Source: a virus (Duplodnaviria > Heunggongvirae > Uroviricota > Caudoviricetes). Taken from it: a DNA stretch of 4,200 bases. The translations under genes were made by a program, and so were the position numbers. Location: positions 1 to 4,200 of IMG/VR virus record IMGVR_UViG_2541047928_000001. The stretch is one strand, 5' to 3'. Positions 1-4,200 of the stretch are shown here, piece by piece. The notes beneath the pieces were generated by a model. That model was not told the DNA's origin, ran no database searches, and was given only the letters and a program-made list of their open reading frames with translations. Each line of letters opens with the position of its first letter. Position 1 is the stretch's first letter.

Positions 1-265
1 GCTTGTGAATTTGTATCGTCATGCCGCTTTGAGTGGTGACTACAACGACAGAACCAGGCTGAAGACTGTTAAGATTGAATGCTTCGTAAAACGAATCCAA
101 TGCCAGTGCTTTTTTATTCTTTCTGTTCCACCAACGCCATCCCTTGCTACAGGCTACACTGACAATCCACTGTCCACTCCTGTAAGCCATATAAAACCAG
201 ATGAGCAAAACCTGAAGGAAGGCTATCCAGTCAATAATCGTATATTTCGCGAAGGAGTCCATCAC
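1..265 (-). CDS. Partial CDS (N-terminal part only, continues past window start): small predicted membrane protein, MMDSFAKYTIIDWIAFLQVLLIWFYMAYRSGQWIVSVACSKGWRWWNRKNKKALALDSFYEAFNLNSLQPGSVVVVTTQSGMTIQIHK...
   Basis: Hand translation of the minus strand. ATG at 265-263 (second ATG at 262-260) overlaps the stop of the upstream gene at 262-264 (ATGA). A perfect SD AGGAGGT lies 4-7 nt upstream. This frame has no stop codon down to position 1. A roughly 20-residue hydrophobic stretch is followed by a W/K/R-rich segment. Absent from the ORF track, presumably because no stop lies inside the window. Confidence 0.5.
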   Translation of the reverse strand, partial: MMDSFAKYTIIDWIAFLQVLLIWFYMAYRSGQWIVSVACSKGWRWWNRKNKKALALDSFYEAFNLNSLQPGSVVVVTTQSGMTIQIHK

Positions 266-756
266 TTCACCTCCTGCGGCGGTTCCGGTAGCGGCATCCA
301 GTGGGTTACACCGCCAATTGGCTCATCGTCGTCGTACTCCAATGCTGCTATATAGAACCCGTCACGACGAGAATAAGAAATCCCTGACATTACAATGCCA
401 TCAGAAACAACAATAATGTCACCCGTTTCTTCCGGCATTCGATCACTACAGCTTATCCAACCATCCGGAGTTACCGGCACTGGCTTGGCGGTATAAAGCG
501 GTGTTATATCTGCCCGAAAATTACATGCTTTATGCAGCCGCACCCACCGTTCGACTTCTGCTTTGTCAGAATACATACCAGTGAACGTGTTATATTCACG
601 GTCAATTTGCGTGAAGGTTACCTTCCACGCCACCGGCTCTGCCTCAAGCGATGCCAGTGCAATCCGTGCCAGTTCCATTTGTTCGCCACGGGTAAGCCCG
701 TTTTCAAGCGGGTATTTAATGAACAATTCGATACGTTCTTTAGTGATAGTGCTCAT
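262..756 (-). CDS. DUF551-like phage protein (164 aa), function unknown
   Basis: Track ORF 262..798 trimmed to the internal ATG at 756-754, which has a strong SD (AAAGGAGAG, 5-nt spacer) and sits 1 nt after the stop of the upstream gene. The ATG at 798 has no SD and would overlap the upstream gene by 40 nt. The C-terminal half (GWISCSDRMPEE ... VTHWMPLPEPP) resembles the DUF551 motif as I recall it; not search-verified. Confidence 0.65.
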   Translation of the reverse strand: MSTITKERIELFIKYPLENGLTRGEQMELARIALASLEAEPVAWKVTFTQIDREYNTFTGMYSDKAEVERWVRLHKACNFRADITPLYTAKPVPVTPDGWISCSDRMPEETGDIIVVSDGIVMSGISYSRRDGFYIAALEYDDDEPIGGVTHWMPLPEPPQEVK

Positions 757-757
757 A

Positions 758-1402
758 TCACTCTCCTTTGATGCGAATGCCAGCGGCGCGGGAATCATTC
801 CATCGCTTTACTTCTTCACGAATTACGTCAATGCATTCTTTCGAATCCATTAGGTAATCTTCATCAAAAAGACGTTCCTGTTCGTTTTCTATCGCAACAA
901 TGATTGCTTCAACTAACTTTTGTGCCTGAGAACCACTTTCTAACTCTGCAATGCGCTTCTCTGCGGCCTCTGCCCTGCATTGTTCCCGTTGGAACATTTT
1001 GTGGGTGCGGTCGAGCGCCTCAAGTCTGGCTGCTGATGTTTTCTCTTCTGCTTCAAGCTCAACGCGCAGCTTCCCTACCGTTAGCGCAATATCCTCGTTC
1101 TCCTTGTCGCGGGATTTTATGTATTGCTGGTTTCTTTCCCGTTCATCCAGTAGTGCCAGCGCAACATTTGGATTAAAGGCAGCAATAAATTCAGCGTTTG
1201 CGTAAGCCTGAGCATCTGTTTCAACCAGGCAGTTAACATGACATTCTGCAATCACGCCACCGGGTTCTCCTTTCCATTTTTGACAAACAAAAACTCCTGT
1301 TAAATTGCCGTGCTGGTTAACAGATGTATGCCCTACGATGTAGCTTCCTTTAGTTGCTTTCTCTGCCTTTTCACGCAGTGCCTGATAGTTAATCTCGCTC
1401 AC
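758..1402 (-). CDS. ead/Ea22-like family protein (214 aa)
   Basis: Track ORF. GTG start at 1402-1400 overlaps the upstream stop (GTGA); SD GGAGG lies 7 nt upstream. The N-terminus ([19 protein letters not shown]...) and AAFNPNVALALLDE motif resemble ead/Ea22-like proteins of lambdoid prophages. The central region is charged and coiled-coil-like. Confidence 0.7.
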   Translation of the reverse strand: MSEINYQALREKAEKATKGSYIVGHTSVNQHGNLTGVFVCQKWKGEPGGVIAECHVNCLVETDAQAYANAEFIAAFNPNVALALLDERERNQQYIKSRDKENEDIALTVGKLRVELEAEEKTSAARLEALDRTHKMFQREQCRAEAAEKRIAELESGSQAQKLVEAIIVAIENEQERLFDEDYLMDSKECIDVIREEVKRWNDSRAAGIRIKGE

Positions 1403-1623
1403 TCTTCATCCTCCAAGTCGGCAACGGCGTCCATCACATCAGAACCGCGAATAACCTCAAAAGCACGGCAGGCCATTTGAAATACCAGTTGCTCTTGCGG
1501 GTGAGGAGACTCCCAATATTTGAAGCCTGGGCGATGCGTGTACCCCATCATTGAATAAAAATCACCAGCAAGCTTAATCGCGGCATCGACAAGCTCTCTG
1601 TTAGTCATTCTTTTTCCGCTCAC
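1399..1623 (-). CDS. Hypothetical small protein (74 aa as called), acidic C-terminus
   Basis: Track ORF 1399..1644 trimmed to an in-frame GTG at 1623-1621, preceded by SD AAGGAGG (6-nt spacer) and overlapping the upstream stop (GTGA). An alternative ATG at 1608 would give 69 aa. No recognisable family. Confidence 0.5.
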
Positions 1624-1787
1624 TGGTTGCCTCCTTTGCGCCACATCGCATTCAGATATTTGTTTTGATTCACTGACGGAAAAGAATTTCTCTTAAGCAA
1701 TTCCTCTCTCGATGGCATTGGCTTTACGCGTTGGCGAATAATCATTTCTGCCGGAAGAATGCCGGGATTGTATGCAAGTCCTCTCAT
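1620..1787 (-). CDS. Hypothetical small basic protein (55 aa)
   Basis: Track ORF 1620..1820 trimmed to the ATG at 1787-1785, which has SD GAGGA (7-nt spacer) and starts 10 nt after the upstream stop. The ATG at 1820 lacks an SD and overlaps the upstream gene. Net basic composition. Confidence 0.45.
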
Positions 1788-1797
1788 GGTAAATTCC

Positions 1798-2094
1798 TCA
1801 GTCATTACTGATAGCGCCATAGCGTGAGCGGTAATTACGCAGGCGCGGGTCGATATATTCAGGGAATTTGTCTATTGTCGCTTTTCGCAACGGTCTCATT
1901 GCTGTTTCGTTTGTTCGGTCCTTCTCCTGTTTTAGCGCGAGTTGTATATCGCGTCGGTACATCCGTTCTGCTTTTGTTTCTGGTGTCAGAGCAAGAAACG
2001 CGTCGAAATTGTTTTTGATATTCTCCAGCACCTCCGCCTTGGAGCTACCGGAGCAGTTGCGCGGGTCATCCGCACCATACAGAGGCGCTGGCAT
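1798..2094 (-). CDS. Hypothetical protein (98 aa)
   Basis: Track ORF. ATG at 2094-2092 with a weak SD (AAGG, 8-nt spacer), 23 nt downstream of the preceding stop. Same strand and tight spacing as the rest of the operon. No recognisable family. Confidence 0.55.
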
Positions 2095-2117
2095 AATGGG
2101 AGCCTTATTTTCAGTAA

Positions 2118-2705
2118 TCAGAAAGCAGGGTAATCGTTCTGGCTGTAACCATAATCATCTGCATGATTCTGGCTTACGTTTTTAGAGCGATTGTCTTTAT
2201 CTTTGAGGCTGGCAACCATGTCGGCGATAGTTTCTGGTTGCTTGCCTTCTGCCTTTTCTTTAAGGGTTTGACCTGTTTGTGCAATAAACGGGATGCGTAT
2301 TTCCATCTGGTAGCTGTCTGCGCCAGTCTTTTTGTTTGTGGTTAATACTTTCTGGAGCACTAACCCGATTTTCTTTCCATGAAATTCAGGTGCAACAAAT
2401 TTACTGGCGGAAACCATATGCTGCGTTAATTGTCCAATCCCGGCACACCCCATCATGGCGTGAACGACATTTGCGCCAAATTTGTTTTCCGTTCCGTCAT
2501 TTTTCTGAACACAAACGCTAAGATACTGGATTTTACGTCCGTCGTCGGATTCTCCAGAAAACTCAATAAATTTGGCTCCTTTTTCTGATTTCTTTAGTTC
2601 TGCTTCAGTAATGGTAATGATATGGGCGCCAGTTTCGTTAATAAAACCACCTTGCCCTGCGGTCAGTGCTGCTTCTTCGTTATAAGTAAAAATCACGTTG
2701 CTCAT
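2118..2705 (-). CDS. Putative ssDNA-binding partner of the adjacent ATPase (195 aa); possibly T7 gp2.5-like rather than a canonical SSB
   Basis: Track ORF. Its ATG overlaps the ATPase stop (ATGA), indicating translational coupling. The C-terminus ...ADDYGYSQNDYPAF is an acidic/aromatic tail ending in Phe, reminiscent of SSB and gp2.5 C-terminal tips. The N-terminus MSNVIFT loosely resembles T7 gp2.5 (MAKKIFT). There is no canonical SSB OB-fold signature. The functional call is an inference. Confidence 0.55.
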   Translation of the reverse strand: MSNVIFTYNEEAALTAGQGGFINETGAHIITITEAELKKSEKGAKFIEFSGESDDGRKIQYLSVCVQKNDGTENKFGANVVHAMMGCAGIGQLTQHMVSASKFVAPEFHGKKIGLVLQKVLTTNKKTGADSYQMEIRIPFIAQTGQTLKEKAEGKQPETIADMVASLKDKDNRSKNVSQNHADDYGYSQNDYPAF

Positions 2706-3382
2706 GCGGCGTTTTCCTTAATTTGATGAACATTATTGATGCCGTAGTAATCACAAACAGTGGCATCGACGAAAGAGAGATCGTTATCAATCTCATTGGA
2801 ATCAAACATTCCTATTGGGGATTTAACAGTGTCTGCACCGTTGTTTTTCGTGGTGAAAAAGAACTGGTCATCGCGGGTAAGGGTGCGAAGAACTATAGTA
2901 AACATGCCTTCGACAGTGATTTTCTCGTCCAGCATTTTGCCGATAGTCTTCATTTTCACACGCCCCATAGGGGTTTCTTCGGTGTGTGCGAGAAAATAGA
3001 CTCTCAGGTCATCAGGTGCATCCTGTGCAGCCTTAATCACCTCCCATGCGTGGCGGCCTATCTCAGTGAATTTATCAAACGATTTTTCTTCTGAGCGGCG
3101 CATAAACTCATTGCTCATCACATACTGGAAGTCATCAACAATAACGATTCTTTTCCCGTATTCGTGAGCACGCTTAATTACGGCAACTATTACGTCCCAT
3201 TTGTCAGTGGTAACTACGGTTCCTTTTTTTGCTCTGGCATCCCATGCCAGCCAGTCTTTTGATTTAAATGGAAGCGGCTTGCCTATTGGTTTTATAAGTA
3301 TTGCTTCCTCTGGATTGATATTTCTCATGCTGGTTGATTTTCCGGTGCCAGATTCACCGAGTATTAATGTCGCAGTTCCCAT
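2702..3382 (-). CDS. P-loop ATPase, probably Sak4-like (AAA_24 / RecA-like core) phage recombination protein (226 aa)
   Basis: Track ORF. Walker A GESGTGKST at residues 9-17 and a Walker B-like hhhhDD motif (RIVIVDD). Size and N-terminal P-loop fit the small RecA-like Sak4 family. It sits where lambdoid phages carry their recombination module, directly after kil. SD GAGG with a 6-nt spacer. Confidence 0.7.
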   Translation of the reverse strand: MGTATLILGESGTGKSTSMRNINPEEAILIKPIGKPLPFKSKDWLAWDARAKKGTVVTTDKWDVIVAVIKRAHEYGKRIVIVDDFQYVMSNEFMRRSEEKSFDKFTEIGRHAWEVIKAAQDAPDDLRVYFLAHTEETPMGRVKMKTIGKMLDEKITVEGMFTIVLRTLTRDDQFFFTTKNNGADTVKSPIGMFDSNEIDNDLSFVDATVCDYYGINNVHQIKENAA

Positions 3383-3390
3383 AATTTGCC

Positions 3391-3579
3391 TCAGAATGGT
3401 AATTCGGATGGGGAGGAAAGAAACTCACGCTCATTCATGCGCTCTCTTTGTGCCTGCCATAAGCAAAGTTGTTTCTTTGATTTATCTCCCGCTTTACGCC
3501 AGTAACGAGCCTCAGCAATGTGATATTCTCTTTTTAATCGACTTAACTCTGGAGTTTTCGCCAGTTCTACCGGAATCAT
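3391..3579 (-). CDS. Hypothetical small basic protein (62 aa)
   Basis: Track ORF 3391..3591 trimmed to the ATG at 3579-3577, which has SD GGAGGT (5-nt spacer) and overlaps the kil stop (ATGA). Lys/Arg-rich. No recognisable family. Confidence 0.5.
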   Translation of the reverse strand: MIPVELAKTPELSRLKREYHIAEARYWRKAGDKSKKQLCLWQAQRERMNEREFLSSPSELPF

Positions 3580-3689
3580 TTTGACCTCCATTTTCTGTAG
3601 GCTTCGACGGCCTCACGAAACATCTTTTCATCGCCAATAAAAGTGGCGATAGTGAATTTAGTCTGGATAGCCATAAGTGTTTGATCCAT
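3576..3689 (-). CDS. kil: Kil-like host cell-division inhibitor (37 aa as called)
   Basis: Internal ATG at 3689-3687 of track ORF 3576..3815, with SD AGGAG (8-nt spacer). The product MDQTLMAIQTKFTIATFIGDEKMFREAVEAYRKWRSK matches my recollection of the lambda Kil N-terminus. It starts 32 nt inside the cIII 3' end, the same overlap I recall for lambda. The upstream part of the track ORF is an artefact of the overlapping cIII frame. Confidence 0.7.
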   Translation of the reverse strand: MDQTLMAIQTKFTIATFIGDEKMFREAVEAYRKWRSK

Positions 3690-3822
3690 TTTTTGGGACT
3701 CCTGGCTGATTAAGTATGTCGATAAGGCGTTTCCATCCGTCACGTAATTTACGGGTGATTCGTTCAAGTAAAGATTCGGAAGGGCAGCCAGCAACAGGCC
3801 ACCCTGCAATGGCATATTGCAT
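3658..3822 (-). CDS. cIII: CIII, FtsH/HflB protease inhibitor that stabilises CII (54 aa)
   Basis: Not in the ORF track (54 aa). Hand translation from ATG 3822-3820 to TAA 3660-3658 gives MQYAIAGWPVAGCPSESLLERITRKLRDGWKRLIDILNQPGVPKNGSNTYGYPD, which matches lambda CIII as I recall it. SD AAGGAG at 3834-3829 with a 6-nt spacer. Confidence 0.85.
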   Translation of the reverse strand: MQYAIAGWPVAGCPSESLLERITRKLRDGWKRLIDILNQPGVPKNGSNTYGYPD

Positions 3823-3840
3823 GGTGTGCTCCTTATTTAT

Positions 3841-3871
3841 ACATAACGAAAAACGCCTCGAGTGAAGCGTT
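3841..3871 (-). terminator. Candidate intrinsic terminator or regulatory hairpin between the 97-aa ORF and cIII
   Basis: Minus-strand RNA: AACGCUUC, loop ACUC, GAGGCGUU (8 bp including one G-U pair), followed by UUUCGUU. It lies just upstream of the cIII SD. Likely read through under antitermination if this is a pL-type operon. Confidence 0.35.
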
Positions 3872-3894
3872 ATTGGTATGCGGTAACGCCGCGC

Positions 3895-4188
3895 TCAGGC
3901 GGCTTTGATAGTCATATCATCTGAATCAAATATTCCTGATGTATCGATATCGGTAATTCTTATTCCTTCGCTACCATCCATTGGAGGCCATCCTTCCTGA
4001 CCATTTCCATCATTCCAGTCGAACTCACACACAACACCATATGCATTTAAGTCGCTTGAAATTGCTATAAGCAGAGCATGTTGCGCCAGCATGATTAATA
4101 CAGCATTTAATACAGAGCCGTGTTTATTGAGTCGGTATTCAGAGTCTGACCAGAAATTATTAATCTGGTGAAGTTTTTCCTCTGTCAT
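3895..4188 (-). CDS. Hypothetical acidic protein (97 aa)
   Basis: Track ORF. Its ATG at 4188-4186 overlaps the TAA of an upstream gene that ends at 4188-4190 (TAATG). The composition is strongly acidic (about 16 D/E against 5 K/R), with a D-rich C-terminal region. No recognisable family. Confidence 0.6.
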   Translation of the reverse strand: MTEEKLHQINNFWSDSEYRLNKHGSVLNAVLIMLAQHALLIAISSDLNAYGVVCEFDWNDGNGQEGWPPMDGSEGIRITDIDTSGIFDSDDMTIKAA

Positions 4189-4200
4189 TACGTCATGGTC

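Follow-up and report, generated by a model that had tools for sequence, protein, structure and literature searches.

A DUF4752 gene overlapping its upstream neighbor in the early leftward operon of a temperate phage, and the predicted membrane topology of its product

Introduction

Small phage-encoded proteins of the inner membrane serve several purposes. T4 Imm, P22 SieA and HK97 gp15 are superinfection-exclusion proteins, of which the last two are prophage-expressed. Qin YdfD and SPO1 gp56 are host-toxic or host-takeover membrane proteins. The E protein of phiX174, a lytic microvirus, is the product of its lysis gene: 91 residues long, it has an N-terminal membrane helix, an N-out/C-in orientation and a basic C-terminus. 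The early protein p16.7 of phi29, in which a membrane anchor at the N-terminus is joined to a small cytoplasmic domain, holds phage genomes at the membrane. Here we describe a gene of the Pfam family DUF4752 that runs off the left edge of a 4,200-nucleotide stretch of viral DNA (positions 1 to 4,200 of the IMG/VR record IMGVR_UViG_2541047928_000001, Caudoviricetes), hereafter the window, and compare its product with these proteins.

The nearest relatives are the RefSeq members of Pfam DUF4752 and PHROG 667, which are the same gene at the same position, with the start codon and the one-nucleotide overlap found in the window. Distant members, namely BTP1 gp45 (YP_009639250.1), D6 orf94, Shigella phage 75/02 Stx gp73 and the protein of Klebsiella phage vB_Kpn_Chronis, share the architecture and the conserved columns. 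They retain K-x-G-x-W after the helix, AxNxxYDAF, the PG turn and TxxG, but are only 16-36% identical, are without WRWW and are encoded in other genome regions (nin, plasmid prophage). T4 Imm, SieA and gp15 are like the DUF4752 product in being small inner-membrane proteins, but no homology was found (there is no PADLOC match, and PHROG 667 carries no function), and whereas SieA and gp15 are prophage-expressed, the DUF4752 gene is coupled inside a repressed early operon. With phiX174 E there is a likeness of architecture but no detected similarity of sequence or fold, and whereas E is a lysis gene, the phages with DUF4752 possess a lysis cassette of their own and carry DUF4752 as an early accessory gene. 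The phi29 p16.7 protein has the same combination of anchor and small cytoplasmic domain but no detectable similarity, and DNA binding by DUF4752 would be hypothetical. The likenesses to phiX174 E, YdfD, gp56, p16.7 and the exclusion proteins appear to be of architecture only.

Results

A DUF4752 gene at the left edge of the window

The minus-strand frame that runs off the left side of the window is a real gene of the DUF4752 family. An earlier note, made from the letters of this DNA alone, had described the frame as open from position 265 to the window edge, and its 88 codons do contain no stop down to base 1. The 87-residue product encoded within the window scores 118 bits (E 1.8e-34) with Pfam DUF4752 (PF15944), whose gathering threshold is 27, residues 8-87 corresponding to positions 2-80 of the 84-position model, and it is also matched by PHROG 667, which is annotated as "unknown function". 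Every one of the family columns W32, A54..Y59..A61-F62, P69-G70 and T77 is found in the window product. RefSeq places a 94-residue "DUF4752 family protein" at the same location in the E. coli Ecol_881 prophage (WP_020231265.1), and a DUF4752 family protein at that location in phage ST104, as orf7 (YP_006363.1). In the two clusters built at 90% identity, with 460 and 627 sequences, the named members are all called "DUF4752 family protein" or "hypothetical protein". The window allele is identical to the variant in locus L015 and other viral contigs, and it differs from RefSeq relatives at single residues, e.g., V73 for I73.

The earlier note had called the gene unlisted. It is missing from the list of open reading frames (ORFs) that accompanied the DNA, because the ORF lister omits frames that run off the source, but it is not a new gene, and public genomes already annotate it under its family name. 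Full-length relatives have 94 residues, and therefore 23 nucleotides, the last seven codons and the stop, lie beyond the left edge, the window holding the 5' 92% of a 94-codon gene. In relatives the C-terminus reads ...IQIHKPKEEGRG before the stop, and a 92-residue variant ends in ...PKEEK. Products are 92-94 residues long in relatives with 96-99% identical DNA and 82-108 residues in the wider DUF4752 family.

The coding strand was examined with 58 unique alleles, differences being counted relative to the window. Variable sites in the minus frame fall on codon positions 1, 2 and 3 in the ratio 22/13/33, codon differences from the window are synonymous in 293 cases and non-synonymous in 93, and the frame is uninterrupted in all 83 of the related loci examined. 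By this substitution pattern, the minus strand is shown to code and the DUF4752 gene to be under purifying selection. Read in the frame of the plus-strand ORF that covers the same DNA (5..355), the same alleles give 122 synonymous versus 248 non-synonymous differences, and a stop falls within that ORF in 5 of the 58. It has no Pfam match, and the RefSeq relatives have no coding sequence on that strand. The earlier suspicion that the plus-strand ORF is an artefact is borne out on each of these counts.

Start codon and coupling to the upstream gene

The minus strand from 300 to 1 reads ...CCGCAGGAGGTGAAGTGATGGACTCC..., and it contains both the perfect AGGAGGT Shine-Dalgarno sequence and the overlap of the start with the DUF551 stop that had been noticed before, the TGA and the ATG having one base in common (Table 1). 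The "ATG-ATG" opening reported with them was a misreading, the actual codons being GTG (265..263) followed by ATG (262..260). Among the alleles, the codon in front of the conserved ATG varies between GTG, GTA, TTG and ATG, and some of them do read ATGATG. The GTG at 265..263 was rejected as a start, since it is not kept as a start codon across alleles and stands only 3 nucleotides after AGGAGGT.

Translational coupling to the DUF551 gene, also proposed in the earlier note, is supported by the conservation of this one-nucleotide stop/start overlap. As TGATG or TAATG, the overlap occurs in nearly all of the ~80 viral loci of the DUF4752 subfamily to which the window belongs, and at least four different gene tails precede it. 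The 17-18 nucleotides GCAGGAGGTGAAGTGATG (window 262..280; loci L005-L084) are kept although the sequence further upstream differs, so that the Shine-Dalgarno sequence and the last codons of the upstream gene move together with the DUF4752 gene. The genes upstream are several DUF551 variants and unrelated small proteins, all ending in ...QEVK or a near variant, and at least four unrelated ones terminate in ...QEVK itself; together with the retention of GCAGGAGGTGAAGTGATG, this places a mosaic recombination boundary inside the last codons of the upstream gene. The Klebsiella-type distant subfamily has an ATGA overlap in place of TGATG, and BTP1 and D6 have, instead of coupling, a gap of 70-110 nucleotides upstream of the DUF4752 gene.

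Predicted topology and conserved regions of the product

The DUF4752 product is likely to be membrane-anchored, and the predicted form is a single-pass inner-membrane protein of N-out/C-in orientation, which we regard as probable from its sequence. A hydrophobic helix followed by a stretch rich in Trp and Lys/Arg had been described in the earlier note, and both are present. Residues 8-27 are hydrophobic, with a best 19-residue Kyte-Doolittle mean of 1.78 (the usual transmembrane threshold is ~1.6) and a Wimley-White octanol sum of -13.2 kcal/mol, and residues 28-52 are basic, with seven K/R and no D/E. AlphaFold2, run with an alignment of 33 sequences, gives a helix at 9-48, a second helix at 50-61 (LALDSFYEAF), the PG turn and a beta-hairpin formed by 72-76 and 82-86; its predicted local distance difference test score (pLDDT) is 89-93 over residues 11-30. 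The juxtamembrane helix has a hydrophobic moment of up to 0.48.

The family alignment comprises 33 members, with identities falling to 16-30%. All 33 have in common an N-terminal tail that is short and neutral or acidic, a hydrophobic helix, a strongly basic stretch and a domain of one helix and a beta-hairpin, and in most of them the hydrophobic segment lies at the matching position with comparable hydrophobicity. The net charge is -2 to +1 in the N-terminal flank and +2 to +8 in the C-terminal flank of every member. Because of this charge bias and the positive-inside rule, the N-terminus would face out and nearly all of the mass would be cytoplasmic. The best-conserved columns are A54, A61, F62, G70 and T77, together with W32 after the helix (29 of 33 members), and none of them is in the anchor. 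After the basic stretch, the pattern AxNxxYDAF, PG turn and TxxG is family-wide. The WRWW motif occurs only in the E. coli/Enterobacter subfamily, distant members keeping the basic residues alone.

Three recurrent frameshifted alleles, P0024, P0026 and P0036, retain the membrane helix and the basic stretch, with the C-terminal domain replaced; P0024 and P0026 have 9-10 member sequences each. These alleles may be decaying prophage copies or tolerated truncations.

Distribution and genomic contexts of the family

Members of the DUF4752 family occur only in temperate phages and prophages of Enterobacterales, with hosts in the genera Escherichia, Salmonella, Shigella, Klebsiella, Enterobacter, Kosakonia and Erwinia. 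DNA 96-99% identical to window 1..265 is present in 51 phage records, including ST104, CUS-3, IME10, HF4s and several Stx-converting phages, and of 5426 complete E. coli genomes, 546 (~10%) contain the DUF4752 DNA of the window. A profile search of 1.84 billion representative proteins returned only 46 clusters at E <= 0.001, and the credible ones are all 82-108 residues long. In the 1151-residue protein P0052, profile positions 31-53, the Trp/Arg-rich stretch, are matched at 10 separate places, which is probably a compositional repeat rather than a sign of relationship. A scan of genome contigs gave only two loci, one of them L003 (JAJXBQ010000315.1), a 2.7-kb contig that had been assigned to a Segatella copri metagenome-assembled genome and whose DUF4752 gene has 93% protein identity. 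The DNA is evidently that of an enterobacterial phage, and the contig very probably a binning contaminant.

Podo-, sipho- and P1-like myovirus genomes all carry the gene, and its surroundings vary. In E. coli prophages and ST104 it lies in the ea region adjoining xis and int, after the Ea22/DUF551 gene; in Shigella phage 75/02 Stx it stands ahead of an Ea22-like gene; in BTP1 it lies in the nin region, after the replication genes O and P. It is further found in the P1-like plasmid prophage D6 and in an Enterobacter prophage. Downstream, the commonest neighbor is an ASCH-domain gene that overlaps the DUF4752 gene and is present in at least 43 of the 76 loci. It starts 8 nucleotides before the DUF4752 stop (in ST104, which is locus L002, at 4701..4985, and in L007, L017, L018 and L023), and by this overlap it is coupled too. 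In the remaining loci the ASCH-domain gene is cut at varying points, e.g., after GGTGAATAA in L001, and the varied cut-offs suggest repeated deletion next to xis/att.

An early leftward operon

The window comes from a lambdoid or P22-like phage and is part of its delayed-early leftward operon, and all genes of the window are on the minus strand (Table 1). In complete relatives, xis and int come next in the operon. No minus-strand promoter-like sites were found between 265 and 1275 by a crude consensus scan, the count of sites being that expected from shuffled sequence, and the G+C content of the DUF4752 gene is not distinctive (0.44 vs 0.40-0.50). By these sequence features, the DUF4752 gene appears to be embedded in the operon rather than a self-contained "moron". 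Since its coupling is conserved and no promoter of its own was found, it is probably made with the early-left operon and not by the resting prophage, and the gene would then be silent while the repressor is active.

Table 1. Features of the window, with the DUF4752 gene and its parts first
Feature	Position	Strand	Basis or remark
DUF4752 gene, first 87 codons and 1 nucleotide	1..262	minus	Pfam PF15944, RefSeq annotation, codon-position pattern
ATG start of the DUF4752 gene	260..262	minus	annotated start in RefSeq relatives; kept in all alleles
TGA stop of the DUF551 gene, base 262 common to the DUF4752 ATG (TGATG)	262..264	minus	same overlap in nearly all viral loci
Shine-Dalgarno AGGAGGT, 6 nucleotides before the ATG, within the last DUF551 codons	269..275	minus	GCAGGAGGTGAAGTGATG or a close variant in almost all subfamily loci
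Predicted transmembrane helix TIIDWIAFLQVLLIWFYMAY, codons 8-27	182..241	minus	hydrophobicity, AlphaFold2 helix
Basic Trp-rich juxtamembrane helix, codons 28-52, with K/R-x-G-x-W motif (W32) and KGWRWWNRKNKK	107..181	minus	
Conserved C-terminal mini-domain, codons 53-87, cut by the window edge	2..106	minus	AlphaFold2 secondary structure
Antisense shadow ORF	5..355	plus	not a gene
DUF551 gene (Ea22 C-terminal-domain family), likely start ATG 756	262..756	minus	Pfam PF04448, E 5.8e-15
Ead/Ea22	758..1402	minus	
81-residue protein	1399..1644	minus	
DUF2737	1620..1820	minus	
Abc2 anti-RecBCD	1798..2094	minus	
SSB-like protein	2118..2705	minus	
Sak4-like ATPase	2702..3382	minus	
66-residue PHROG 1723 protein	3391..3591	minus	
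kil	about 3576..3704	minus	PF06301
cIII	3658..3822	minus	PF02061
DUF2528	3895..4188	minus	

For the DUF551 gene, ATG 756 is a likelier start than the ATG 798 of the ORF lister, since ATG 756 has the Shine-Dalgarno-like GGAGAG in front of it and follows the Ea22 stop (760..758) by 1 nucleotide. Ea22 is split in the window into an Ead_Ea22 gene and a separate DUF551 gene. In 933W, too, the Ea22 C-terminal domain is split off as a gene of its own, L0065, which is a DUF551-type gene (PMC8614690). L0065 was considered as the counterpart of the DUF4752 gene and rejected on the ground that it is this split-off domain.

Elsewhere in the operon, cIII and kil overlap in different frames (3576..3822). 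The ORF lister gives a 79-residue ORF at 3576..3815, of which only residues 44-74 match Kil, and its N-terminal half is probably untranslated. The recombination module (2118..3382) consists of the Sak4-like ATPase and the SSB-like protein (PHROGs 2872 and 743) with Abc2, not of Erf or Red-beta, and this type of module shows the mosaic make-up of the early-left operon.

Searches for a function

The earlier note had named superinfection exclusion, abortive infection and host-toxic functions as candidates for the gene, and the searches lent these no support. PADLOC-DB defence families gave no match up to E = 1, and scans of NCBIfam and PHROG gave no functional name. A profile search of the PDB returned no usable match (best E 0.66). 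Foldseek found nothing at E <= 0.001 in the PDB and only the DUF4752 family's own fragments in BFVD, so that the modeled cytoplasmic domain matched no solved or predicted structure. A literature search for DUF4752, PF15944 and several accessions and locus tags found no paper, and one on membrane or toxic proteins of the exo-xis region found nothing relevant.

Discussion

We propose that the DUF4752 protein would probably sit with ~7 residues facing the periplasm and one helix across the membrane. Its basic Trp-rich helix would be expected at the inner membrane face, with the domain of helix and beta-hairpin in the cytoplasm. We also consider it likely that the protein is made with the delayed-early leftward operon, alongside cIII, kil, the Sak4-type recombination genes, abc2 and Ea22/DUF551, with production most probably following infection or induction rather than taking place in the resting lysogen. 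What it does there we can suggest only tentatively: it might be a membrane-tethered binder, whose cytoplasmic mini-domain captures or inhibits one host or phage factor during early development. Activity in the infected or induced cell and a specific partner at the inner membrane face are suggested because the protein would be co-expressed early, has a negligible periplasmic part and is conserved outside its anchor. As no gene is a constant partner, it could perhaps act alone, a suggestion that we put forward with similar reserve. Gene identity, topology, early expression and tethered binder taken together form what we consider the best explanation of the data, and one that is somewhat more probable than its negation.

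Several points weigh against this reading. Membrane insertion is predicted from simple hydrophobicity scales and charge bias only, the hydrophobic segment includes Asp11 and Gln17, and in the distant member P0063 the hydrophobicity is low (0.65). The AlphaFold2 model is of moderate confidence, with a mean pLDDT of 74, a predicted template modeling score of 0.32 and a pLDDT of 62-74 in the C-terminal domain. The promoter scan was a crude one, and an internal promoter that is active in lysogens may still exist. Neither the left end of the gene nor the gene downstream of it falls within the window.

The alternative that fares best, although we consider it improbable, is a host-toxic or host-takeover membrane protein that acts by damaging the membrane or by inhibiting an enzyme of the envelope or of division. 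At 94 residues, with an N-terminal helix and a basic region, the DUF4752 product is similar in size and architecture to phiX174 E; it has a Trp/Arg-rich interfacial helix, and its gene is in the same operon as that of the host-division inhibitor Kil. Frameshifted or truncated alleles are common in bacterial genomes, as if expression were costly, but ordinary prophage decay gives the same picture. Against it, searches by sequence and by fold turned up no similarity to a protein of this kind, and Kil is already encoded in the operon. WRWW is limited to the E. coli/Enterobacter subfamily, and a cytoplasmic domain that is conserved and folded speaks for specific binding instead of general damage to the membrane. 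Holins and single-gene lysis proteins are expected in the late lysis cassette or as the only lysis gene of a phage, whereas the DUF4752 gene was in an early operon, in an ea or nin region, wherever its context was examined.

Superinfection exclusion or defence, in which the protein would block the entry of incoming phage DNA from the cytoplasmic face of the inner membrane, is a little less probable again. It would suit a small predicted inner-membrane protein of temperate phages and a non-essential accessory gene of patchy distribution (546 of the 5426 E. coli genomes). The early-left operon of ST104 has another exclusion gene, gene 17, and early expression could shield the infected cell in the manner of T4 Imm. 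No PADLOC family matches, however, and neither promoter nor terminator of its own was found for the gene, which is coupled in a repressor-controlled operon. Its probable silence in the resting prophage weakens the case for exclusion of the lysogen type. The podo-, sipho- and P1-like myovirus carriers use different entry routes, and only ~7 residues would face the periplasm. Operon embedding, the short periplasmic part and the unrelated virion types argue against exclusion that is prophage-expressed or receptor-specific, whereas blocking of DNA entry, or toxicity, in the course of lytic growth may be compatible with all three.

It is more doubtful still that the protein tethers nucleic acid or the replication and recombination machinery to the membrane, with the basic part binding DNA or RNA and holding phage genomes. 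A strongly basic stretch, net +2 to +8, adjoins the membrane, but the positive-inside rule alone would require it, and there is no recognisable nucleic-acid-binding fold. The gene is an early one that follows O and P in BTP1 and the Sak4/SSB recombination genes in the window, but it has no constant linkage to replication genes. The ASCH family, whose gene comes next in at least 43 of 76 relatives, is linked to RNA binding. Finally, the hydrophobic segment near the N-terminus could in principle be a cleaved signal peptide of a protein exported to the periplasm, a reading that is very improbable and was rejected on charge distribution, as the segment lacks a positive n-region in front of it (the net charge there is -2 to +1 in every member), runs for ~20 residues, is directly followed by a strongly basic stretch and has no conserved small-x-small cleavage motif after it.

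Returning to the membrane-tethered binder, it is a long shot that DUF4752 proteins are a class of membrane-tethered early regulators, perhaps holding a host factor at the inner membrane or blocking phage DNA entry from inside. The FtsH/HflKC protease system, which controls the stability of CII, CIII and Xis, would be a speculative host target. A cell-division or FtsH target is made less likely, though not removed, because the operon already encodes Kil and CIII. If such a host factor were held, the lysis-lysogeny or excision decision would be tuned in many lambdoid, P22-like and Stx phages.

As a sequence feature, the gene is nothing new, being annotated in hundreds of genomes, and nothing in the analysis points to an unusual mechanism. 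It is nevertheless carried by about a tenth of complete E. coli genomes, with Stx-converting phages among its carriers, and is under purifying selection, yet no mention of it was found among about 8 million papers. The predicted topology and the model of a conserved mini-domain provide a concrete starting point for the poorly understood exo-xis/ea region of lambdoid phages.
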